Positions 1,769-37,750 of a DNA stretch of 64,000 nucleotides are shown one piece after another. The translations under genes and the position numbers were made by a program. The notes beneath the pieces were generated by a model. It did not search any database, was not told the origin of the DNA, and saw only the letters and a program-made list of their open reading frames with translations. Numbering within the stretch: the stretch's first letter is position 1; each line of letters opens with the position of its first letter. Source of the stretch: Escherichia coli (GTDB lineage: Bacteria; Pseudomonadota; Gammaproteobacteria; Enterobacterales; Enterobacteriaceae); the NCBI RefSeq assembly GCF_013315695.1, contig NZ_CP054353.1; one strand, 5' to 3'.

Positions 1769-2347
1769 ATGAACGCACAATTAACCGAAATCATGCGCCT
1801 TATCACCAACCTAATCCGCACAGGGGTAGTCACCGAAGTGGACAGGGAAAACTGGCTTTGCCGGGTGAAAACGGGCGAGCTTGAAACCAACTGGATCAGC
1901 TGGCTGACGCTGCGTGCCGGGAATGCCCGTACATGGTGGCGACCATCGGAAGGTGAGCAGGTGGTGCTGCTGAGTCTGGGCGGCAATCTGGACACCGCCT
2001 TTGCGCTGCCCGCTGTCTATTCGAATCAGTTCGCACCACCGTCGACGTCGGCGGACGCCTGCGTGACAGAACATCCTGACGGTGGCTGGTTTGAATACGA
2101 ACCCGCCACCGGGCGCTGGTATGTCAGGGGCATCAAATCAATGGTCATTGAGGCTGCTGACAACATCACCATGAAAACCAGTGAGTTTGTACTGGAGGCT
2201 GACCGCACACGCATTAACAGCGAAGTGGTGATCAATGGTGGCGTTACCCAGGGCGGCGGAGCGATGAGTTCTAACGGGATCGTGGTTGATGCGCATCAGC
2301 ATACTGGCGTCCTGAAAGGCGGCGATACAACCGGAGGCCCGGTATGA
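1769..2347 (+). CDS. V: Baseplate assembly/spike protein V
   Basis: 192 aa; size and position match P2 gpV. Confidence 0.75.
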   Translation: MNAQLTEIMRLITNLIRTGVVTEVDRENWLCRVKTGELETNWISWLTLRAGNARTWWRPSEGEQVVLLSLGGNLDTAFALPAVYSNQFAPPSTSADACVTEHPDGGWFEYEPATGRWYVRGIKSMVIEAADNITMKTSEFVLEADRTRINSEVVINGGVTQGGGAMSSNGIVVDAHQHTGVLKGGDTTGGPV

Positions 2348-2703
2348 CGCTTTATAGCGGGATGAACAATACCAGCGGCAAAGTCATTACTGATATTGAT
2401 CATCTGCGCCAGTCGGTGCGGGACATTCTGCTGACACCGCAGGGTAGCCGTATTGCCCGCCGGGAATATGGTTCCCTGCTGTCGGCACTGATAGATCAGC
2501 CACAAAATCCGGCATTACGCCTGCAGGTCATGTCGGCAGTGTATGTGGCGCTGAGTCGCTGGGAGCCACGGTTGACGCTGGATTCCATCACCATCAACAG
2601 CAATTTTGACGGTTCAATGGTGGTGGAGCTGACCGGGCGGCGGAATAACGGTGTGCCTGTGTCCCTTTCCGTATCAACAGGAGCAGAGAATGGCAGTGAT
2701 TGA
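2344..2703 (+). CDS. W: Baseplate protein W (gp25-like)
   Basis: 119 aa; size and position match P2 gpW; start overlaps V stop. Confidence 0.75.
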   Translation: MTLYSGMNNTSGKVITDIDHLRQSVRDILLTPQGSRIARREYGSLLSALIDQPQNPALRLQVMSAVYVALSRWEPRLTLDSITINSNFDGSMVVELTGRRNNGVPVSLSVSTGAENGSD

Positions 2704-3598
2704 CCTTTCGCAGTTGCCTGCACCGCAGATTGTGGATGTGCCGGACTTTGAGACGCTGCTTGCCGAACGCAAGGCAGAATTTGTGGCGCTTCATCCGAAA
2801 GATGAACAGGAAGCAGTGATCCGCACGCTGGAACTGGAATCTGAACCCGCCACTAAATTGTTGCAGGAGAACGCTTACCGTGAGTTGCTTCTGCGCCAGC
2901 GCATTAACGAAGCCGCGCAGGCGGTGATGGTGGCTTACGCGATGGGCGGCGATCTTGACCAGCTCGCTGCCAACTACAACGTGACACGCCTGACGGTGAC
3001 GCCTGCTGATAATGATGCTGTGCCGCCCGTTGCAGCTGTGATGGAAAGCGATGAAGCGTTGCGCCTGCGTGTGCCTGCAGCCTTTGAAGGGCTTTCTGTT
3101 GCGGGGCCAACTGCAGCTTATGAATTTCATGCCCGAAGCGCCGACGGTCGGGTGGCGGATGCCAGTGCAACCAGCACGGCACCTGCAGAGGTGGTGCTGA
3201 CTGTCCTTAGCCGCGAAGGCGATGGAACTGCAGAAAAAGACCTGCTGGACGTGGTGGAAAAAGCTCTGAACAGTGAGAACGTCCGCCCGGTGGCTGACCG
3301 TCTTACGGTTCGCAGCGCAGAAATCATCCCGTATCGCGTGGAAGCCACCATTTTTCTCTATCCGGGACCGGAAGCAGAGCCGGTAATGGCAGCGGCAAAA
3401 GCCAGTCTGCAGAAGTACATTGCCAGCCAGACGCGTCTTGGTCGGGATATTCGCCGTAGCGCCATCTTTGCTGCTCTGCATGTTGAGGGTGTTCAACGTG
3501 TGGAACTGGCTTCTCCGCTGGCGGATGTGGTCCTGAACAAAACACAGGCGGCATCATGTACGCAGTGGAGCGTAACCAACGGAGGAACGGATGAATAG
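2690..3598 (+). CDS. J: Baseplate wedge protein J
   Basis: 302 aa from ATG at 2690 with AGGAG upstream (track ORF starts 2651); P2 gpJ-like. Confidence 0.75.
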   Translation: MAVIDLSQLPAPQIVDVPDFETLLAERKAEFVALHPKDEQEAVIRTLELESEPATKLLQENAYRELLLRQRINEAAQAVMVAYAMGGDLDQLAANYNVTRLTVTPADNDAVPPVAAVMESDEALRLRVPAAFEGLSVAGPTAAYEFHARSADGRVADASATSTAPAEVVLTVLSREGDGTAEKDLLDVVEKALNSENVRPVADRLTVRSAEIIPYRVEATIFLYPGPEAEPVMAAAKASLQKYIASQTRLGRDIRRSAIFAALHVEGVQRVELASPLADVVLNKTQAASCTQWSVTNGGTDE

Positions 3599-4196
3599 TC
3601 TGCTGCCACCGGGTTCAACTTCACTGGAGCGCCGACTGGCGCAAACCTGTAGCGGGATTTCTGATTTGCAGGTGCCGCTGCGTGACTTGTGGAATCCGGC
3701 TACCTGTCCGGTCAGCTTCCTGCCTTATCTCGCCTGGGCGTTCTCTGTGGATCGCTGGGACGAGGGCTGGACAGAAAGCGTCAAACGCCAGGTAGTGAAG
3801 GATGCTTTTTATATTCATCAGCATAAAGGAACCACCAGTGCCGTACGGCGAGTGGTGGAACCGTTCGGATTCCTGATCCGCATTATTGAGTGGTGGCAGA
3901 CCGGAGAAACACCGGGCACGTTTCGCCTGGATATCGGCGTGCAGGACCAGGGCATCACTGAAGATACCTATCTGGAACTTGAGCGACTGATAAGCGATGC
4001 CAAACCATGTAGCCGCCACATGATCGGCATGTCCATCAATCTGCAGACCAGCGGCCCGCATTGGGTGGGAGCCGCCAGCTATCTTGGCGAAGAAATCACG
4101 ATCTATCCGTATATCAACGAAACGATTATTTCCGGTGGCACCGCGCATGAAGGCGGGGCGGTCCATGTTATTGACACAATGAGAGTGAATCCATGA
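3591..4196 (+). CDS. I: Baseplate protein I
   Basis: 201 aa; position between J and H. Confidence 0.7.
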   Translation: MNSLLPPGSTSLERRLAQTCSGISDLQVPLRDLWNPATCPVSFLPYLAWAFSVDRWDEGWTESVKRQVVKDAFYIHQHKGTTSAVRRVVEPFGFLIRIIEWWQTGETPGTFRLDIGVQDQGITEDTYLELERLISDAKPCSRHMIGMSINLQTSGPHWVGAASYLGEEITIYPYINETIISGGTAHEGGAVHVIDTMRVNP

Positions 4197-5314
4197 GCAC
4201 AAAATTTTATACCCTGCTGACGGATATTGGCGCGGCGAAACTTGCCAGCGCCGCCGCGCTCGGTGTGCCGCTAAAAATTACCCATATGGCGGTGGGCGAT
4301 GGCGGTGGAGTATTGCCAACGCCGGACGCAAAGCAGACGGCACTGGTAAATGAGAAACGCCGGGCTGCGCTGAATATGCTTTATATCGACCCGCAGAACA
4401 GCAGCCAGATTATTGCCGAACAGGTGATCCCTGAAAACGAGGGCGGTTGGTGGATACGTGAAGTGGGCTTGTTTGATGAGTCCGGGGCATTGATTGCCGT
4501 GGGCAACTGCCCGGAAAGCTATAAGCCGCAACTGGCTGAAGGTAGCGGGCGCACTCAGACCGTGCGCATGGTGCTGATTACCAGCAGCACGGACAATATC
4601 ACCCTGAAAATCGACCCTGCTGTAGTGCTGGCAACCCGCAAGTATGTGGATGACAAGGCACTGGAGCTGAAGGTGTACGCAGATGATCAGATGGCAAAAC
4701 ATCTTGCCGCACCGGACCCGCATTCACAGTACGCGCCAAAAGCCAGCCCGACATTTACCGGAACCCCCAAAGCGCCAACGCCAGCGGCGGGGAATAATAC
4801 CACGCAGGTTGCGACCACTGCGTTTGTACAGGCGGCACTGACGGCCCTTATTAATGGTGCGCCAGCCACGCTGGACACGCTGAAAGAAATAGCCGCAGCC
4901 ATTAACAATGATCCGAATTTCAGTACCACCATTAACAATGCGCTGGCACTAAAAGCGCCACTGTCGAGTCCGGCACTCACCGGAACGCCAACAGCACCTA
5001 CTGCGGCACAGTCGGTCAACAATACACAGATTGCCACTACAGCTTTTGTGAAATCAGCGATTGCAGCAATGGTGGGTTCTGCACCCGCGGCACTGGATAC
5101 ACTGAACGAACTGGCGGCGGCACTGGGGAATGATCCGAACTTTGCCACGACAATGCTTAATGCGCTGGCAGGTAAACAACCGCTGGACAATACGCTGACT
5201 AATTTGAGTGGAAAGGATGTAGCTGGTCTTCTCGCATACCTTGGTTTGGGAGAAGGCGGCAAAACTGGGTGTGCCTGTTCCAGGGGCCTTCAGATACCGG
5301 ACAACAGGCTTTGA
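4193..5314 (+). CDS. H: Tail fibre protein H, conserved N-terminal/shaft part; ends 19 codons after the inversion crossover site
   Basis: N-terminus MSTKFYTLLTDIGAAKLA...MAVGDGGG and repeats TGTPxAPT / ALDTLNELAAALGNDPNF resemble P2 gpH; 373 aa versus about 669 aa for P2 H. Confidence 0.7.
   Translation: MSTKFYTLLTDIGAAKLASAAALGVPLKITHMAVGDGGGVLPTPDAKQTALVNEKRRAALNMLYIDPQNSSQIIAEQVIPENEGGWWIREVGLFDESGALIAVGNCPESYKPQLAEGSGRTQTVRMVLITSSTDNITLKIDPAVVLATRKYVDDKALELKVYADDQMAKHLAAPDPHSQYAPKASPTFTGTPKAPTPAAGNNTTQVATTAFVQAALTALINGAPATLDTLKEIAAAINNDPNFSTTINNALALKAPLSSPALTGTPTAPTAAQSVNNTQIATTAFVKSAIAAMVGSAPAALDTLNELAAALGNDPNFATTMLNALAGKQPLDNTLTNLSGKDVAGLLAYLGLGEGGKTGCACSRGLQIPDNRL
5229..5254. repeat. 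Left crossover site of invertible segment (hix/gix-like 26 bp)
   Basis: ttctcgcatacc-tt-ggtttgggagaa; half-sites inverted; lies inside H coding frame (LAYLGLGE). Confidence 0.6.
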
Positions 5315-5668
5315 AATGCAAGTGGTGATGGATGGATGAAATTACCCGGAACTGGAAAATCCTGCAAAATGGTCGTGGTGATTTACGCCGAGTTTATCGA
5401 CGCTGGGATGAGAATTACATTGATTAGGCATCGTGTTTTATTGAGTAAGGCCGGACTGCGGAAAAGCACCGTCATCCTGGTGATGGCGGTGCGACTTCAA
5501 AAGCGCTGGGGGAACTGGCGATGATCTTCAGAAGGCCCAACGTTAACAGGGGGCTTTATGCCGCTGCTTACAGAACGTCATCCAACCAGCGACACGGTAT
5601 CGATGAACGACAGTTGGTGGGCTGTTGGCGGGAGTAATTTTATCCAGGGTGATTTATATTGAACGAAT

Positions 5669-5914
5669 ATGTTTATAGCTGCAATGGATAACGCCGTATT
5701 TTCCCGAGGATACCACGATTGCGGGGAATATATAAATCATAGGGATGGGATTGGTGAGACGCGGGAATATATTTCTGCATCAACTCAAAATATTTGCAGT
5801 GGGAGTTTCGGTATTGAACCGCCACAAGGACGCTCCGGTACATCTAAGGCTGGAGATGATTTGCTGTTCTGCGTGGAGAAAATCATGGGAATATGTGTCA
5901 GAAGAACTTATTGA
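5669..5914 (+). pseudogene. Tail fibre assembly (tfa)-like gene fragment, apparently frameshifted
   Basis: Translation MDNAVF...DGIGETREYISAS... shares protein-level similarity with a minus-strand copy near 6480-6680; ORF breaks after 81 aa and continues in another frame. Confidence 0.3.
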
Positions 5915-6436
5915 AATTACTGAATCAGAAAACACCGGAAACCAAGATGCCAACGAAATACAGAACAGGCGACTATCCCGAAAATACAGCCGCTATCGGT
6001 CGCCATGAACGATAAATGAACTGGCGCAATATAATTGACAGATACTGGATTATCTGGACGGTGGAACTGGTTGATTCCTCCAGCACAGCGCCAGTCATTG
6101 ATTGATGGCAATGGCCTCCGGCAGTCTGGCCAGATGAAACATCCGGCGCGGGACTGTAAACTGTTGCCGTCACCGAAACAATGTAATCCAGCGCAGCGTT
6201 AAGTTGGTTGACGCTGGTGACGGCAACAGATACCGTCCGGCCGGATGTCATCAGTTGAACTGCCTGAGGCGCAGGCCATTTGCATCAATCTGGTGACTGG
6301 GAGGAATCAACCAGTTCAGTGCGTCCAGATAATCCAGCCACAAATTACCCATTTTCGCCAGTTCCCATTTATCAGACGACGTTAGCGGCTTTACCGGGTG
6401 GTTGTATTTTCATGATATTCGCCTGGCTTGATTTAA

Positions 6437-6625
6437 TTAGTAGCTCTGTCTTTCTGATTCAGTTATAGACGATTTCACTTCGATGGTGGGTGGATGATTT
6501 TTAAATCCACAGAACGGCAAATTCATAACCAGCCTTACGGATTTTGAGCGTTGTGGCAGGTTCTGGAATAAACTCACTGCAAGATATTTTTGATGCAGAA
6601 ATATATTCCCGCGTCTCACCATCAT
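6437..6625 (-). pseudogene. Second tfa-like copy in opposite orientation, frameshifted
   Basis: 30-bp perfect inverted repeat with 5753-5782; conserved peptide ...YDGETREYISAS... lies in a different frame from the track ORF here. Confidence 0.3.
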
Positions 6626-6676
6626 AGTTATAGACGGTCAATATATCCACGCCTTCGTGGTAATGCCTTGCGCTAT

Positions 6677-7129
6677 TTAAACACGGCGTCGTTCATTAAT
6701 GCAGCCCTGACGATAAGTTAAACCAACAGCCCACGGGTTGTAATTCGCCGATACCGATGTCGCTGGTGAATGACGTTCGGTGATGGGATCAGAATTAAAG
6801 CCGGTTAACCCCCTGGGCCTTCGTGCAGTCATCACGAATTGTCGCCCAGCGCCCATTCCTCTTTGAGCCATCACCCAGAATGAGTACAGGATGACGGTGC
6901 TTTTCCAGCATTTTGGGGAAAGGGATGCTAAAAACACGTCCTCATTGTTACCGCGATAATGTCGGCGTAACCGCGAATAACGACCGCATAAATCAGGTAA
7001 TTTATTTGTTGGATAATTGCCAGTTCCATCCATCAAAATGCCGCACCGTTGCAAAAGCCAGCCTGTCCGGTATCTGAAGGCCATGGAACAGTCACACCAT
7101 CCCGTTTTGCAGAGCTTCTCCCAAACCAA
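6677..7129 (-). other. 150-codon open frame reading inward from right crossover site; status uncertain
   Basis: Long stop-free frame, +1 relative to the H continuation frame; W/R/C-rich translation. Confidence 0.2.
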
Positions 7130-7141
7130 CGTTTATGAAAA
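7116..7141. repeat. Right crossover site of invertible segment
   Basis: ttctcccaaacc-aa-cgtttatgaaaa; inverted relative to left site (core TT versus AA). Confidence 0.6.
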
Positions 7142-7196
7142 TGCAGAGATAATGGCTAACTGGCATCATCCCCGGTTTTTATTCAGGGGGATGATC

Positions 7197-7763
7197 ATGC
7201 TTATTGGCTATGTACGCGTGTCAACAAATGACCAGAACACCGATTTGCAACGTAATGCACTGAACTGCGCGGGATGTGAGCGGATTTTTGAGGATAAAAT
7301 CAGTGGCACTAAGTCCGACAGACCAGGGTTGAAAAAACTGCTCAGGACACTATCGGCAGGAGACACGCTGGTTGTCTGGAAGCTGGACAGGTTGGGGCGC
7401 AGTATGCGGCATCTTGTTACGCTGATAGAAGAGTTGCGTCAGCGAGGCGTGAATTTCCGAAGCCTGACTGACAGTATTGATACCAGCACCCCAATGGGCC
7501 GTTTCTTTTTTCATGTCATGGGTGCCCTGGCTGAAATGGAACGCGAACTGATAGTTGAACGTACCAGGGCAGGGCTGGCTGCAGCTCGTGCCAAAGGCAG
7601 AGTAGGTGGACGCCGTCCTAAGTTGACCACCGAACAGTGGGCACAGATTGGGCGTTTACTCGAGGCCGGAGAATCAAGACAGCGTATTGCACTGATTTTT
7701 GATGTAGGCGTTTCTACCATTTATAGAAAATTTCCGGCAAATAAGAGCAATGAATCTCCCTGA
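7197..7763 (+). CDS. pin: Serine DNA invertase, Pin/Gin/Cin/Hin family
   Basis: MLIGYVRVSTNDQNTDLQRNAL... with catalytic Ser in VRVST and C-terminal HTH; track ORF 7017-7763 over-extends upstream. Confidence 0.9.
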   Translation: MLIGYVRVSTNDQNTDLQRNALNCAGCERIFEDKISGTKSDRPGLKKLLRTLSAGDTLVVWKLDRLGRSMRHLVTLIEELRQRGVNFRSLTDSIDTSTPMGRFFFHVMGALAEMERELIVERTRAGLAAARAKGRVGGRRPKLTTEQWAQIGRLLEAGESRQRIALIFDVGVSTIYRKFPANKSNESP

Positions 7764-7810
7764 ATCAGCATTATTTTGATTATCCCTGCAGCAGACAAAT
7801 ACCGTCATTT

Positions 7811-7828
7811 TGTGTGAATAACGGTACA
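7811..7828 (+). promoter_or_regulatory. Ogr-dependent late promoter element TGT-N12-ACA upstream of FI
   Basis: tgtgtgaataacggtaca about 75 bp upstream of FI start. Confidence 0.45.
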
Positions 7829-7904
7829 ACTGCGCTTAGCTGTTTGTCAGGCACAATCACTTCAACATAGGGCGAAGCCTAATCCAATCAGGAGGTTCGC
7901 CACT

Positions 7905-9077
7905 ATGGCTCAGGATTACCACCATGGGGTGCGCGTTGTTGAAGTCAACGAAGGCACCCGATCCATTACCACGGTGAGCACCGCCATCGTGGGTATGGTC
8001 TGCACGGGCGACGATGCCGATGCAAAAATGTTTCCTCTTAATAAACCCGTGCTGATCACTGATGTGCTGACTGCCAGCGGTAAAGCGGGTGAGTCCGGCA
8101 CGCTGGCCCGTTCGCTGGACGCCATCGCTGACCAGGCAAAACCCGTGACCGTTGTTGTGCGTGTGCCGCAGGGTGAAACGGAAGAAGAAACCACAACCAA
8201 TATCATCGGCGCAGTGACCGCCGAGGGTAAAAAAACAGGCATGAAAGCCCTGCTATCTGCCCAGTCACAGCTCGGCGTTAAACCGCGCATTCTCGGCGTG
8301 CCAGGTCACGATAACAAAGCCGTTGCTACTGAGTTGCTGAGTGTGGCGCAAAGCCTGCGTGGGTTTGCCTACCTGTCAGCATATGGCTGCAAGACGGTAC
8401 AGGAGGCGATCACTTACCGTGAAAACTTCAGCCAGCGCGAAGGGATGCTGATCTGGCCTGACTTTACTGGCTGGGACACGGTGCTGAACGCCGAAGCAAT
8501 GGCATATGCCACCGCCCGTGCGCTTGGTCTGCGTGCCAAAATTGATGAGCAGACCGGGTGGCACAAAAGCCTGTCCAACGTGGGCGTGAACGGTGTCACC
8601 GGAATTTCTGCAGATGTGTTCTGGGATCTGCAGGACCCGGCAACCGATGCAGGTCTGCTGAACCAGAACGACGTCACCACGCTTGTGCGTAAAGACGGTT
8701 TCCGCTTCTGGGGTTCCCGCTGCCTGAGTGATAACCCGCTCTTTGCCTTCGAAAACTACACCCGCACGGCGCAGGTGCTGATGGACACGATGGCAGAAGC
8801 ACACATGTGGGCGGTGGATAAACCGCTTAACCCGTCGCTGGCCCGCGACATTATCGAAGGTATCCGCGCCAAAATGCGCAACCTGGTCAGTCAGGGCTAT
8901 CTCATTGGTGGTGATTGCTGGCTGGACGAGTCGGTGAACGACAAAGACACGCTTAAAGCCGGAAAACTCACCATCGACTACGACTACACGCCAGTGCCGC
9001 CACTTGAAAATCTGATGCTGCGCCAGCGCATCACCGATCAGTACCTGGTGAATTTCGCCAGCCAGGTCAGCGCGTAA
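7905..9077 (+). CDS. FI: Contractile tail sheath protein FI
   Basis: 390 aa; AGGAGG RBS; size and position match P2 FI. Confidence 0.85.
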
Positions 9078-9086
9078 GGGGACAAC

Positions 9087-9602
9087 ATGGCTTTACCACG
9101 TAAATTAAAACATCTGAACTTGTTTAACGACGGGAACAACTGGCAGGGGATCGTTGAGTCGCTGACGCTGCCGAAATTCACCCGCAAATATGAGAAGTAT
9201 CGCGGCGGCGGTATGCCGGGGGCGGTGGATGTGGATCTGGGACTGGATGACAGTGCACTGGATACAGAATTTTCCATTGGTGGTACTGAACTGCTGCTGT
9301 TTAAGCAGATGGGCAAATCCACGGTGGATGGCATCCAGCTGCGCTTTACCGGCTCTATCCAGCGTGACGATACCGGGGAAGTGCAGGCCGTGGAGCTTGT
9401 CGTGCGTGGACGTCACAAAGAAGTGGATTCCGGCGAGTGGAAGACGGGCGAAAGCAACACCACCAAAGTGACCAGTACCAACAGCTACGCGAAGCTGACC
9501 ATCAATGGTGAGGTGCTCTATGAAGTGGACCTTATCAACATGGTGGAAATTGTGGACGGTGTGGACCTGATGGAAGCGCACCGCAACGCCCTCGGCCTCT
9601 GA
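9087..9602 (+). CDS. FII: Tail tube protein FII
   Basis: 171 aa immediately after sheath gene. Confidence 0.85.
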   Translation: MALPRKLKHLNLFNDGNNWQGIVESLTLPKFTRKYEKYRGGGMPGAVDVDLGLDDSALDTEFSIGGTELLLFKQMGKSTVDGIQLRFTGSIQRDDTGEVQAVELVVRGRHKEVDSGEWKTGESNTTKVTSTNSYAKLTINGEVLYEVDLINMVEIVDGVDLMEAHRNALGL

Positions 9603-9656
9603 TGTATCTGAACGGCGCGGAATGCCGCGCCAGAACCTAATTTACAGGACAACAAA

Positions 9657-9959
9657 ATGAGCGATAAACAGACTGAAAAGACCATTCAACTGGATACCCC
9701 CATCATGCGCGGTAAAACAGAAATTACCGAAATTGTGTTGCGTAAACCGCAGTCTGGTGCGCTGCGCGGCACACGCCTGCAGGCCATTATGGATATGGAT
9801 GTGAACGCGATGATGACCGTGATCCCCCGCATCTCCAGTCCGGCACTGACTGCACAGGAAATCGCAGAGATGGACCCGGCAGATCTCACAGCCATGTCGG
9901 TTGAGGTTGTCACTTTTTTGTTGAAGAAGTCGGTGCTTGCCGGTTTACCGACAGCCTGA
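9657..9959 (+). CDS. E: Tail assembly chaperone E
   Basis: 100 aa upstream of tape measure; contains slippery TTTTTTG at 9914-9920. Confidence 0.7.
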   Translation: MSDKQTEKTIQLDTPIMRGKTEITEIVLRKPQSGALRGTRLQAIMDMDVNAMMTVIPRISSPALTAQEIAEMDPADLTAMSVEVVTFLLKKSVLAGLPTA

Positions 9960-10093
9960 CGGTTGACGATCTGGTGGCAGATATCGCCACCATTTTTCAC
10001 TGGCCGCCATCCGTTACTGACGTTATGCCGCTGACCGAAGTGCTGGAATGGCGGTATAAAGCGATTCAGAGAAGCAGGGCCAACGATGAGTGA
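9657..10093 (+). CDS. E+E' fusion chaperone made by programmed -1 frameshift
   Basis: -1 frame after TTTTTTG stays open to TGA at 10091-10093, overlapping T start; conserved feature of tail chaperone genes. Confidence 0.5.
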
Positions 10094-15036: not shown

Positions 15037-15064
15037 AACCTGCTACGGCAGGTTTTATTTTTCT
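15037..15064 (+). terminator. Rho-independent terminator after ogr
   Basis: aacctgctacggcaggtt hairpin followed by T-rich run. Confidence 0.6.
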
Positions 15065-15269
15065 GTAAGCCTATCCATTTAAAGTATAAATGAATATTTA
15101 CATTGATGATTATCATTAGAGTTGCGTTAAAGACTACACCTGCCATTTGTACAATGTTTTAAAGTAATGGCTGCAATTAAATGCAGCCATTATTTATAAT
15201 GATTAATATATATAAAATATCAGACACTGAATAATAACGTACTTTATGTTCAAGGGTCGATATAATCAC

Positions 15270-16346
15270 TTAATAGAATGTTTCTACTAAAGCGTTTACA
15301 TGTTCTCTAGCCTCGCGATAACGCTCTCTTACAACGTTGATAATTTCACCGTTTGGCATTTCATAATGAGTTTGAGCAGGAAGTTTGAAAAGAGGAATTC
15401 CCAAACTTGCAGAAACTTTCCCTGAAGTATGAAAATCTTTAACTTCAGAAAGATAGGCCGCCTCCCATTCATTTAAGTTATTGATTTCACGATATCGCTC
15501 CGTGAATAGTTCTGGGAAGTTCTGATATTGTGTAAAAGCAAAAGCACAAAGGGATTCTTTGATTGAATCATAAGCTCTGGCAACACCAAGATTAGACGTA
15601 AAGTTATTGAAAACAAAGCGATCTAACTTAGGTAATGTAAGATTATTATTCACAACTTGGCTATGAAAAGTGACAAACTTTTCTGCATAGGTTTGTGCAG
15701 CAGAAGAGGGATAATGGCCATAAAGAAGCATCATTATTCCTTTCATCCCTTCTAATGAACTGTAATCAGCCATCATAGGGACGACCAGTCTATCTGAAGA
15801 TAGTAGAGCCATTTGGGTGTAGATAGAAAAACTTGGATTACAGTCAATAAAGACAACCATATCATCGTAATCATCAATATCATGTTCTAGAGTACATAGT
15901 CGACGAAATGCTGTCATATACTCTTTCCATGCGAACCTGTTAGCTGGACTGATAACTGCATAGTTCAGTGCAAGAGTAAGGGACTCGAGGAATGAATCAC
16001 CGGCGATGAGAAACAAATTATCGCTGATTTCATCATTATATTGGTTTACTGCTACTTTGAAAGAACGTCGAATACTGGTGAAATTTGAATGGCCATCTAA
16101 AAGCCAGTCCAGAAACCCTACGACATTTTTGCGTGTTCGTGAAGATTGTAGCTCTTGATTAGTATTGTACCCACGATCACCTCCTCCAAGCAGGTATTGA
16201 GAAATGTTTGCTTGCGGACACAAATCTATTACTAGTACCTGTGTGCTGGGATTTTCTTCTGCATACTGTGCAGCAATGTTGAAACCAAGTGTTGTTTTTC
16301 CAACACCGCCTTTGTTGTTATACATTGCATAAATCTTAACTGCCAT
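15270..16346 (-). CDS. Orphan ParA/MinD-like P-loop ATPase with uncharacterised C-terminal extension; prophage cargo gene of unknown function
   Basis: 358 aa; deviant Walker A KGGVGKTT at residues 12-19, A' motif VLVIDLCPQAN, Walker B-like MVVFIDCNPS; AT-rich; opposite strand to phage late genes; no ParB-like neighbour. Confidence 0.75.
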   Translation of the reverse strand: MAVKIYAMYNNKGGVGKTTLGFNIAAQYAEENPSTQVLVIDLCPQANISQYLLGGGDRGYNTNQELQSSRTRKNVVGFLDWLLDGHSNFTSIRRSFKVAVNQYNDEISDNLFLIAGDSFLESLTLALNYAVISPANRFAWKEYMTAFRRLCTLEHDIDDYDDMVVFIDCNPSFSIYTQMALLSSDRLVVPMMADYSSLEGMKGIMMLLYGHYPSSAAQTYAEKFVTFHSQVVNNNLTLPKLDRFVFNNFTSNLGVARAYDSIKESLCAFAFTQYQNFPELFTERYREINNLNEWEAAYLSEVKDFHTSGKVSASLGIPLFKLPAQTHYEMPNGEIINVVRERYREAREHVNALVETFY

Positions 16347-16641
16347 GTGTATTTCACCCGAGGTTGAATAAAAGCCTACTACATCGCTATTTTACCATTC
16401 AATTTTATCATTAGCAGATTCCAATGAAGAAGATACTTCTGGTTTATCTAATGAAAATTGTGAAGTAAAAGTAGGATACTTCATTCTTCTGCAGTGAGGG
16501 GGGCGTGGATAACATTATAATTTCTTGTTGTATAGCCTTTTCGGGAAAGAGCAGACAAGATTTACATAAAACTCTGTCGCCATTTTGCCGCCACTTCCAA
16601 AGAAAAAGGGGCTACGCTTTCACGTAACCCCTTGATTTATT

Positions 16642-17004
16642 TGGTGGAGCTGGCGGGAGTTGAACCCGCGTCCGAAATTCCTACATCCTCGGTACTACAT
16701 GCTTAGTCAGTCTTTACATTCGCTTGCCAGCTGCGGACGGACACGCCACTAACAAACTAGCCTGATTAAGTTTTAACGCTTCAACCCCAGGCAGGGCTTC
16801 CACGCGATCTCTTTTGGGTTTGACCTCTCTTGATCCCCGTCCTAAGAGCGGAGGCTAGGGAGAGAGGGCTCTAAGCAGGTTATTAAGCTGCTAAAGCGTA
16901 GTTTTCGTCGTTTGCGACTATTTTTTGCGGCTTTTTACGAGGCCAACCGCCCCTCGGCATGCACCTTGGGTTTCGCAAATCCCGTCGAATCCAGAATCAG
17001 CCCC
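16642..17004 (-). ncRNA. ssrA: tmRNA (SsrA)
   Basis: Reverse complement reads GGGGCTGATTCTGGATTCGACGGG...GGACGCGGGTTCAACTCCCGCCAGCTCCACCA; tag-coding region present. Confidence 0.95.
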
Positions 17005-36283: not shown

Positions 36284-37709
36284 TAATGCCAGTCAGTTAA
36301 GCAACTGACTGGCTCTTTTTCGGGGCTGTGGGGTATTTCCAGGGCCTCTCCTTTACCACTCTCGGGAAGGCCCTTTCCCTTCTTGTCGGTAATTTCACAA
36401 GTTGTCCCATACTTGCAAGATCGCGCATCAGCTCCGGTATACGTCCCGGTGAAGCGCCCTGCAATGTCATCAGCATTCTCATCACCATTCCGCATGATTC
36501 TGAGAAACTCAGTTGATTCGGCCAGTAACCTTTCAGATGTTCCGCCATTTTAATCATCTGATATCTCACCAGATTATAAGCCAGTAAGACACCCCACAGC
36601 TCTTGCTCCACAAGCTCCGGTTTTTTACTTCTCAGCGTCAGCCTGCTCAGTTGCATCGTCTGTTTTATCTCCCTGTATCCCAGTTCGATTTCCCAGCGAT
36701 GACTGTACAGATCCGCCATTTCTCCTCCGGGGAAGCGCATGGCGTCCGTCATCGACGTCAGCAGATGGCAGACTTTTCCTTTGCGCGTCACGGTCAGCAG
36801 GCGGGCTGTCACTTCATTTCCCAGTCCCGGCCACTTTTTTCGTGCCTGCGGGCTGGTTTTCAGCTTCACCAGATGATCGCCTTTACCCAGTTTTCTGATC
36901 TCTTCATATTGCGCTCCCTTTCTGAGAGGTATCATCCAGTGGCGGTGTTCTCCCGCCAGGCTCCAGGCATTTAACAGTCCCAGTGAGTAATAACCTTTAT
37001 CCATTAACGTCAGAGTGTTATCGCCGGTTTGTTCTATAAGTTGCTCAGCAAGCTCATTTTCGCTGTTCTTCATCGTGCCGAAGGCTGCAGCCGTCAGCAG
37101 ATGGCTGGTCAGTTCCATCTGGCAGACCATTTTGACCTGCGGGTAGAGCGCCGGGTTCCCGGCATGTGTCTGGCGGGGGAAGGCTGCATCGTTCTCTGGT
37201 GTATCCGGTGTGCGCCAGAACACACCATCGATGGCCAGCAGGGTCAGGCCGCACCAGTGCGGATGCGGCGTGGCGTTATGCCAGAGCTGCGCTGTTTTCG
37301 TGAACACGCGGCGGACAGCCTCACTTCCCAGGCGCTGGCGGGCCTGAATAACGGCACTGGGGGCAACGAAGGGGCGATTGCCCGGCAGCATGATGTCCAG
37401 GCGATTCACAATCTGGTGAAGAGGTTCTTTACGCTCAAGCGCCATGCCAACAATACACCAGACCATCATTTCGAGGGGAAGACGGCGCTTGCGTAGCGTT
37501 ACAGTACCTGATTCGGCAAGGCAACGAGAGATGAGTTCGGGGTCGAGGTAATCCCCCAGAGAAGTCAGTGGGTTACGCAGAGAATCGTAACGGGATACCA
37601 GATCAAGAGCCTGTCCAATGTGCATAAAAAAATCCGGAAACAAGTGAGCGTTTCCGGATTCTTACACAGCCACTGGATCGGTCAACTGATCCTTAACTGA
37701 TCGGCATTA
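36284..37709 (-). mobile_element. IS4 insertion sequence, 1426 bp, complete
   Basis: Terminal inverted repeats taatgccagtcagttaag / taatgccgatcagttaag at both ends; encodes IS4 transposase; no flanking direct repeat. Confidence 0.9.
36297..37625 (-). CDS. insG: IS4 transposase
   Basis: About 442 aa from [19 protein letters not shown] (track ORF 448 aa). Confidence 0.9.
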
Positions 37710-37750
37710 CAGCCCGAAGGCTGGCATTTTTAAATCAGATAAAGTCAGAC

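Follow-up and report, generated by a model that had tools for sequence, protein, structure and literature searches.

The interior of an invertible tail-fibre segment, as printed in the 64,000-nucleotide stretch of Escherichia coli DNA analysed here (the window), is very probably a chimeric consensus of the two orientations of the segment and not a real biological feature. The ~1.86 kb concerned (5255-7114) probably form a sequence that exists in no cell. The underlying locus is ordinary biology, namely a standard Gin/Pin-type invertible tail-fibre switch by which a P2-like prophage changes host range. A preliminary description, made from the sequence alone, had read the central part of the segment as two convergent alternative tail-fibre-assembly (tfa) genes that had both picked up indels.

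The window is E. coli chromosome and carries a P2-like prophage beside ssrA, the late region of which occupies bases 1 to ~16.5 kb (Table 1). Its genes run from baseplate V/W/J/I through the tail-fibre gene H, the invertible segment and the serine invertase to the sheath, tube and tape-measure genes. The constant part of H contains the Pfam Phage_tail_fib N-terminal domain (E 7e-65), and ORF 4193-5314 (+), to which it belongs, passes through the left crossover site, which codes the '...AYLGLGE' end of the constant tail-fibre part; past 5254 the frame reads only garbled sequence. On the other side of the segment, the invertase (protein start MLIGYVRVSTNDQ) matches Resolvase (E 2e-53) and HTH_7 (E 1e-15), and its counterpart in E. 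coli Z142-6 is annotated as a recombinase family protein.

The two crossover sites belong to an inverted repeat (I3; 27 nt, 5229-5255 / 7115-7141, 81% complementary), and we take them to be similar to the gix, cix, pix and hix sites. The P2-like prophage of E. coli 23CRST024 (L001), which served as our main intact reference, has an equivalent pair of sites at the same relative place (3080-3106 / 4970-4996). The region does lie inside an invertible segment, as the preliminary description had stated. The invertase would recombine the two inverted sites, and inversion would thereby exchange the C-terminal part of H along with the cognate Tfa chaperone, the alternatives being cassette 1, with a gp53-like C-terminus (Sv) and a 147-aa Tfa, and cassette 2, with a Collar-type C-terminus (Sv') and a Tfa of roughly 200 aa.

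Table 1 Features of the prophage locus (positions in the window; forward and native refer to the orientation of the intact reference L001)
Feature	Position	Strand	Basis or remark
Tail-fibre gene H, constant N-terminal part, P2-type	4193-5254	+	enters left crossover site
Left 26-bp crossover site, TTCTCGCATACC TT GGTTTGGGAGAA	5229-5254		inverted repeat I3
Invertible-segment interior as printed, very probably a chimeric consensus	5255-7114		matches both orientations of L001
Sv (forward) and Sv' (attributed to inverted reads), superposed	5255-5668		tblastn, base-level display
Left tfa-like arm: 147-aa Tfa (forward) and 200-aa-type Tfa (attributed to inverted reads)	5669-6185		tblastn
Left arm of 32-bp repeat	5752-5783		matches reverse orientation of the reference, not forward
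Right tfa-like arm: 200-aa-type Tfa (native, - strand) and 147-aa Tfa (attributed to inverted reads)	6186-6700		tblastn
Right arm of 32-bp repeat, native 'DGETREYISAS' codons of 200-aa-type Tfa	6590-6621	-	matches forward reference with no mismatch
Sv' (native, - strand) and Sv (attributed to inverted reads), superposed	6701-7114		tblastn; includes ORF 6677-7129 (-)
Right 26-bp crossover site, TTCTCCCAAACC AA CGTTTATGAAAA	7116-7141		inverted repeat I3
Serine DNA invertase, Pin/Gin/Cin/Hin type, intact, 188 aa	7197-7763	+	Pfam Resolvase + HTH_7
tmRNA gene (ssrA)	16642-17004		

Intact relatives show what the segment looks like when it can be read. They have genes for two proteins with a Caudo_TAP domain (PF02413; E 7e-31 and 9e-33), flanked by Gp53-like_C and Collar tail-fibre C-termini (L001, L006 and L007), with Sv and Sv' on opposite strands; the earlier proposal of two convergent tail-fibre-assembly genes is thus correct for the underlying locus. 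All that can be seen of the cassettes in the window is a superposition in which each arm bears traces of the four genes. The intact L001 allele is present at 95% identity or more in 257 records. It occurs in NWU_1 and NWU_4, 99.9% identical to L001 and flipped in one relative to the other, with orderly ORFs and between identical flanks (baseplate J, ymfQ, pinE); the two look like siblings, sharing the locus position and an origin in North West province, South Africa. Therefore, the allele inverts in nature, and it assembles cleanly if one orientation dominates. Other cassette alleles exist as well (L002, L003).

The disturbance is confined to the stretch between the two sites. Across positions 2150-10000, the window is 93–100% identical to L001 per 100-bp bin with zero indels outside 5200-7199, and the constant part of H remains at 93–100% without indels up to 5254. 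Inside the segment, identity falls to 43–86% per bin (~67% between the crossover sites) with 113 gap openings, and all indels of 2150-10000 lie within 5200-7199. The garbling starts at 5255, right after the shared inner half-site GGTTTGGGAGAA, and stops at ~7114, right before the other inner half-site. The prophage flanks are 95–100% identical, without indels, to P2-like prophages of other E. coli; the nearest relative differs by flank, being 23CRST024 on the left and Z142-6 on the right, where 7142-10000 is 99.8% identical to the latter. Further downstream, 16552-37730 (smpB, recN, ffh, aroF, tyrA, pheA) is 99.93% identical to strain MSB1_4I with one gap, showing that the assembly is not generally noisy. 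An IS4 junction lies at ~36.3–37.7 kb and marks a putative rearrangement. MSB1_4I was also considered as an isogenic reference for the segment (chromosome 99.93–100%); it was set aside, as it carries another cassette allele of which only the tfa parts align, at ~71%.

To characterize the composition of the interior, we compared the window segment (S, 5238-7132) with its L001 counterpart (R, 3089-4987) by global alignment in both orientations. S is 66.6% identical to R and 63.8% to the reverse complement of R, while R and its own reverse complement are 31.2% identical. Base by base, 757 positions of S match both orientations, 564 match only the forward one, 505 only the reverse one and 69 neither, which means that the forward orientation accounts for 69.7% of the bases, the reverse for 66.6%, and one or the other for 96.4%. 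The forward-only and reverse-only bases stand at about 53:47 over the whole segment. A mismatch to the forward allele is a match to the reverse allele, and vice versa, and the source orientation changes 194 times along the segment, the median run from one source being 8 nt. BLAST likewise aligns 5238-7132 to the reverse strand of the L001 segment, at 70%. The claim that both tfa copies have picked up indels is not sustained by these data: the departures match the opposite orientation, and more than 100 gap openings together with mismatches of this kind speak against discrete lesions on a collinear tfa copy. We predict that resequencing will find both tfa copies intact.

The superposition also accounts for the symmetry of the segment. 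Within 5150-7250 there are 16 pairs of inverted repeats, 13 of them concentric with centres at 6175.5-6195.5, as opposed to just 3 pairs in the intact relative; together, the concentric repeats take in all 1.9 kb of the segment. Aligned with its own reverse complement, the segment shows 57.5% identity, compared with 31% for the intact reference, where identity was calculated somewhat differently, as identical columns over alignment length. A sequence superposed on its inverted form is symmetric about the midpoint of the inversion, which lies at 6185.0 between the crossover sites, and not about the real tfa junction, which in L001 is ~120 bp off the segment midpoint. The repeat and symmetry features described earlier are far beyond chance. 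The imperfect palindrome of roughly 300 bp near 6195 is present, but it is merely the core of the segment-wide symmetry. The natural locus in L001 has a slight symmetry of its own, with a pair of homologous, convergent tfa genes and two short inverted repeats inside the segment; this observation counts against the chimeric reading.

The perfect inverted repeat, given earlier as 30 bp, exists with its first arm correctly placed; it is 32 bp long, and its second arm had been put some 6–8 nt too far to the right, at 6598-6627. In the intact relative the repeat sequence is found on one arm only (4401-4420). The right arm in the window is the native one, and the left arm would be a ghost copy contributed by inverted reads, to judge from its match to the reverse reference.

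The same applies to the protein-level resemblance between the arms. The motifs reported on both of them are present: GETREYISAS occurs in ORF 5669-5914 (+) and in ORF 6501-6650 (-), MDNAVF is read from 5684 (+), and MNDAVF from 6696-6679 (-). The arms are also broken by stops and frame changes as described, the longest stop-free stretch being 151 aa in the window segment versus 243 aa in the intact relative. Nothing indicates, however, that the symmetry and the similarity of the arms belong to the genes themselves: MDNAVF and MNDAVF are chimeric splices, and the left arm of the 32-bp repeat appears to be a ghost. At 5660-5700, the window first has TGAACGAATATGTTTATAGC, where the 147-aa Tfa (MNEYVYSA) starts, and then GCTGCAATGGATAACGCCGTAT, the end of Sv' with the start of the other Tfa (MDNAVL) in the inverted orientation. 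'MFIAAMDNAVF', the chimeric start at 5669-5700, joins the beginnings of the two tfa genes, MNEYVYSA and MDNAVLNS, and 'MNDAVF' is the reciprocal splice, a mix of MDNAVL and MNEYVY. ORF 6501-6650 (-), in turn, is 94% identical to residues 18-34 of the 200-aa-type Tfa.

By tblastn, each of the four cassette proteins leaves a trace on both arms and on both strands: Sv at 5240-5629 (+) and 7076-6722 (-), Sv' at 7105-6804 (-) and 5461-5568 (+), the 147-aa Tfa at 5865-6062 (+) and 6674-6255 (-), and the 200-aa-type Tfa at 6641-6138 (-) and 5684-6000 (+). The tfa traces are weak, with identities of 33–46%. ORF 6677-7129 (-), of 150 aa, joins on one strand the 'YPTNKLPDL' part of Sv' (73% over 15 aa) and the C-terminus of Sv (58% over 45 aa, E 6e-10). 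Such a fusion is impossible in the real locus, because Sv and Sv' lie on opposite strands there. A Caudo_TAP domain, as expected of frameshifted tfa genes, was not recovered from the translations of the window: four ORF fragments gave no Pfam hit at E <= 0.01, as opposed to ~1e-31 for the reference Tfa proteins.

We compared these values with those of sequences that had diverged from R without any inversion. Five randomly diverged copies of R, made with similar identity to it, give a reverse match of 0.33–0.38, an either-orientation match of 0.74–0.78 and a self-complementarity of 0.32–0.41, compared with 0.666, 0.964 and 0.575 for S. A different allele (Z142-6, L003), which has flanks still nearer to those of the window and served as negative control, explains just 78.8% of the bases. 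We also simulated a majority consensus of a MAFFT alignment of noisy forward and inverted reads of R with its flanks. A 12:12 mixture yields 0.67, 0.68, 0.92 and 0.46 for the forward match, reverse match, either match and self-complementarity, against 0.70, 0.67, 0.96 and 0.575 observed, while mixtures of 14:10 and 18:6 return essentially the forward sequence. The observed pattern therefore requires a near-balanced mixture. The simulated self-complementarity (0.46–0.49) stays below the observed 0.575 and the simulated consensus is shorter, indicating that the actual algorithm was not exactly reproduced.

The interior has no relative of its own kind: among 5,426 complete E. coli genomes, none matches 5256-7114 above 74% identity over most of its length, and the interior matches one allele equally well on either strand. 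In the phage collection, the best match to the segment reaches at most 72% coverage at 72% identity, and an exact-product look-up returned no record of the chimeric H product.

Taken together, these results are very probably explained by the following course of events. The sequenced culture would hold both orientations of the segment at roughly equal abundance, as the informative bases (564:505) suggest; flank-anchored reads of both orientations would pile up over the segment, and the base caller would flip between the two read populations every few bases. The sequence would thus be superposed on its own reverse complement, giving rise to the symmetry about 6185 and to ghost motifs on both arms, and the superposition would also average the lengths of the arms and create dense indels and stops. 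Judging from the printed sequence, mixed reads at assembly or polishing are the most likely cause, and we infer as a corollary of the mixture that the invertase was active in the sequenced culture. On the other hand, 69 bases (~3.6%) match neither orientation of the best reference; these could be an allele difference or consensus noise. A near-50:50 mixture at the fim switch of Klebsiella pneumoniae INF277, with consensus and polishing errors, has been documented by Wick et al. 2023 (PLoS Comput Biol, PMC9980784). A literature search turned up no paper specific to this artefact in invertible segments of phages; the general phenomenon is described in PMC9980784.

The same artefact could have taken its second orientation from elsewhere in the genome, if polishing reads, especially short ones, from another copy of the cassette had been mis-mapped onto the segment. 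Such a copy could sit in another element, for example an e14-like one, in the opposite orientation, and no inversion within the population would then be needed. The same segment allele (99.9%) is indeed known in other strains in two backgrounds, P2-like (23CRST024) and the e14-like pinE/ymfQ element (NWU_1, NWU_4), and many E. coli genomes hold several related segments (median 2, up to 11 places). We nevertheless regard this source of the reads as unlikely: the exact bounds at the crossover sites and the 53:47 ratio fit reads anchored in these very flanks, and long reads that reach across the flanks would have been placed correctly.

The remaining alternatives take the printed sequence as real, and they fail because of its convergence on the reverse complement, its 8-nt grain and its exact confinement between the sites. 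Prophage decay is common, and the broken frames of the fragments and the lack of a Pfam domain on them would suit convergent tfa genes and tail-fibre C-termini that have become pseudogenes of a decaying prophage. Decay, however, is not confined between recombination sites, whereas here 5 kb on each side are 95–100% identical, indel-free and fully coding. Nor does it lead to convergence on the reverse complement of the ancestor (0.67 versus 0.33–0.38 in the controls), and it is implausible that a stretch of 1.9 kb should gather more than 100 gap openings with the invertase next to it still intact; we hold this reading to be very improbable.

It is equally hard to believe that the printed sequence is physically real through a fine-grained palindromisation in vivo that destroyed all four cassette genes and left the invertase intact. 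The specific route, in which the two orientations would have exchanged sequence by repeated gene conversion or by template switching, on sister chromosomes or within the inverted arms, and so partly palindromised the segment, would explain a stretch with a self-complementarity of 57.5% and with its symmetry about the midpoint of the inversion. Yet there are 194 changes of source, one every ~8 nt, and to our knowledge this is far below any known conversion tract length. There is also little homology to drive conversion, with R and its reverse complement 31% identical and 3 short inverted repeats, and no similar product occurs in the 5,426 genomes, which leaves this route with only the slightest chance of being right. 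A natural mosaic of tail-fibre and tfa cassette alleles in one orientation, built by modular recombination, is just as exceedingly improbable: phage tail-fibre cassettes are highly mosaic, the flanks have different nearest relatives (23CRST024 left, Z142-6 right) and further alleles such as L002 and L003 are at hand, but a mosaic of functional alleles would keep its frames and match database alleles blockwise, the 5,426 complete E. coli genomes yielded no blockwise high-identity matches, and the second 'parent' is none other than the first in reverse complement.

With the chimeric consensus as the preferred reading, the case is of value for data hygiene and for showing how an active inverton can be recognised in a finished assembly. 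By annotation pipelines and readers alike, 5255-7114 will be taken for an unusual palindrome or for pseudogenes, namely frameshifted tfa or tail-fibre genes. The artefact would at the same time be indirect evidence that the prophage invertase was active and that both orientations were near equal in the sequenced culture. Its signature consists of short inverted repeats that bound an unusually self-complementary stretch next to a recombinase, with the bounded stretch diverged from all relatives and the flanks near-identical to them. With this signature, finished genomes could be screened for such errors, and for active invertons, from the assembled sequence alone.

The closest parallel is the fim switch of Wick et al., where site-specific inversion was likewise present in both states and the errors were confined to the invertible stretch, with clean sequence elsewhere. 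Here, the affected 1.9 kb are coding sequence from the tail-fibre cassette of a prophage and not the fim promoter switch, its ghost symmetry mimics a frameshifted pair of homologous genes, and the cause at the level of reads is deduced from the consensus.

In Mu G/Gin, P1 C/Cin and e14 P/Pin, each inversion replaces the C-terminus of the tail fibre together with its Tfa chaperone. With these systems and their P2-like versions, which include Escherichia phage pro483 and the prophages of E. coli 23CRST024 and Z142-6, the locus shares an adjacent 188-aa serine invertase (Resolvase + HTH_7). As in other segments of the Din family, 26-bp inverted crossover sites are present, one of them within the tail-fibre ORF, and the intact relatives have two convergent cassettes, each of a C-terminus and a Tfa chaperone. 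Compared with that family, nothing biologically distinctive is shown, the cassettes of the window being unreadable as printed.

The locus also resembles the tfa (Caudo_TAP, PF02413) pseudogenes in the e14 and Rac remnants of E. coli K-12, in that tfa sequence with broken frames stands beside an invertase. Real tfa remnants have discrete lesions, such as truncations and single frameshifts, on a collinear copy, whereas the apparent lesions here are a base-by-base interleaving with the opposite orientation.

The invertible tail-fibre cassette carried by the P2-like prophage of 23CRST024 (locus L001, 3089-4987) is 99.9% identical to that of NWU_1 and NWU_4 (loci L006 and L007, 1501-3363), two clean copies of the same allele lying in opposite orientations. 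In NWU_1 and NWU_4, however, the element that houses the cassette is e14-like and includes ymfQ as well as pinE. The presence of one allele in two different element backgrounds suggests, from sequence comparison, that unrelated tail modules trade entire segments by way of the conserved crossover sites.

We compared the two flanks of the segment in the window. The left flank (2150-5228) is nearly identical to 23CRST024, its closest relative, while the right flank (7142-10000) shares 99.8% identity with Z142-6 and LFB1-1-1R and only about 88-100%, by 100-bp bin, with 23CRST024. Because the closest relatives differ between the flanks, the alignments suggest that recombination may have occurred in the past at the invertible segment or near it.

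The tail-fibre gene H is annotated in 23CRST024 (L001 2044-3465) as a truncated pseudogene followed by a separate gp53-like ORF, whereas the H ORF of the window runs uninterrupted across the homologous region, with 93-100% identity to L001 and zero indels. In the clean assemblies of the cassette allele, the tail-fibre assembly gene (tfa) of the 200-aa type lacks a stop codon after '...WPELPEA', the frame remaining open for at least 34 further codons and into the convergent tfa, and RefSeq labels it an incomplete pseudogene. The real allele has two chaperone genes, and this one may therefore be atypical in its own right.

Coordinates of features in the window and in related loci
Feature	Location	Strand	Remarks
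200-aa-type tfa	L001 3802-4503; L006/L007 2298-2897	- (L001)
H, annotated truncated pseudogene (23CRST024)	L001 2044-2433
Separate gp53-like ORF (23CRST024)	L001 3055-3465
ParA/MinD-like ATPase	window 15270-16346	-	358 aa; Pfam AAA_31, E 3e-22; CbiA
IS4 copy	window ~36300-37730

Left of the IS4 copy, the window is collinear with E. coli MSB1_4I at ~1.333-1.335 Mb (raiA, pheA side). To its right, up to 46500, it is 100% identical to MSB1_4I 1136735-1146735 on the opposite strand, so that relA, eno, pyrG and rlmD replace bamD, rluD and clpB. Since the two sides match separate places in MSB1_4I, the window carries an IS4-bounded rearrangement relative to its closest relatives; an inversion spanning about 190 kb could account for this rearrangement, which may be either real or a misassembly.

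Finally, the ATPase gene occupies a variable spot between the prophage ogr and ssrA. The protein gave no hit in PADLOC and may be prophage cargo. Window 15059-16552 had no match in the MSB1_4I stretch examined, and between ogr and ssrA that strain encodes a hypothetical protein of 160 aa.
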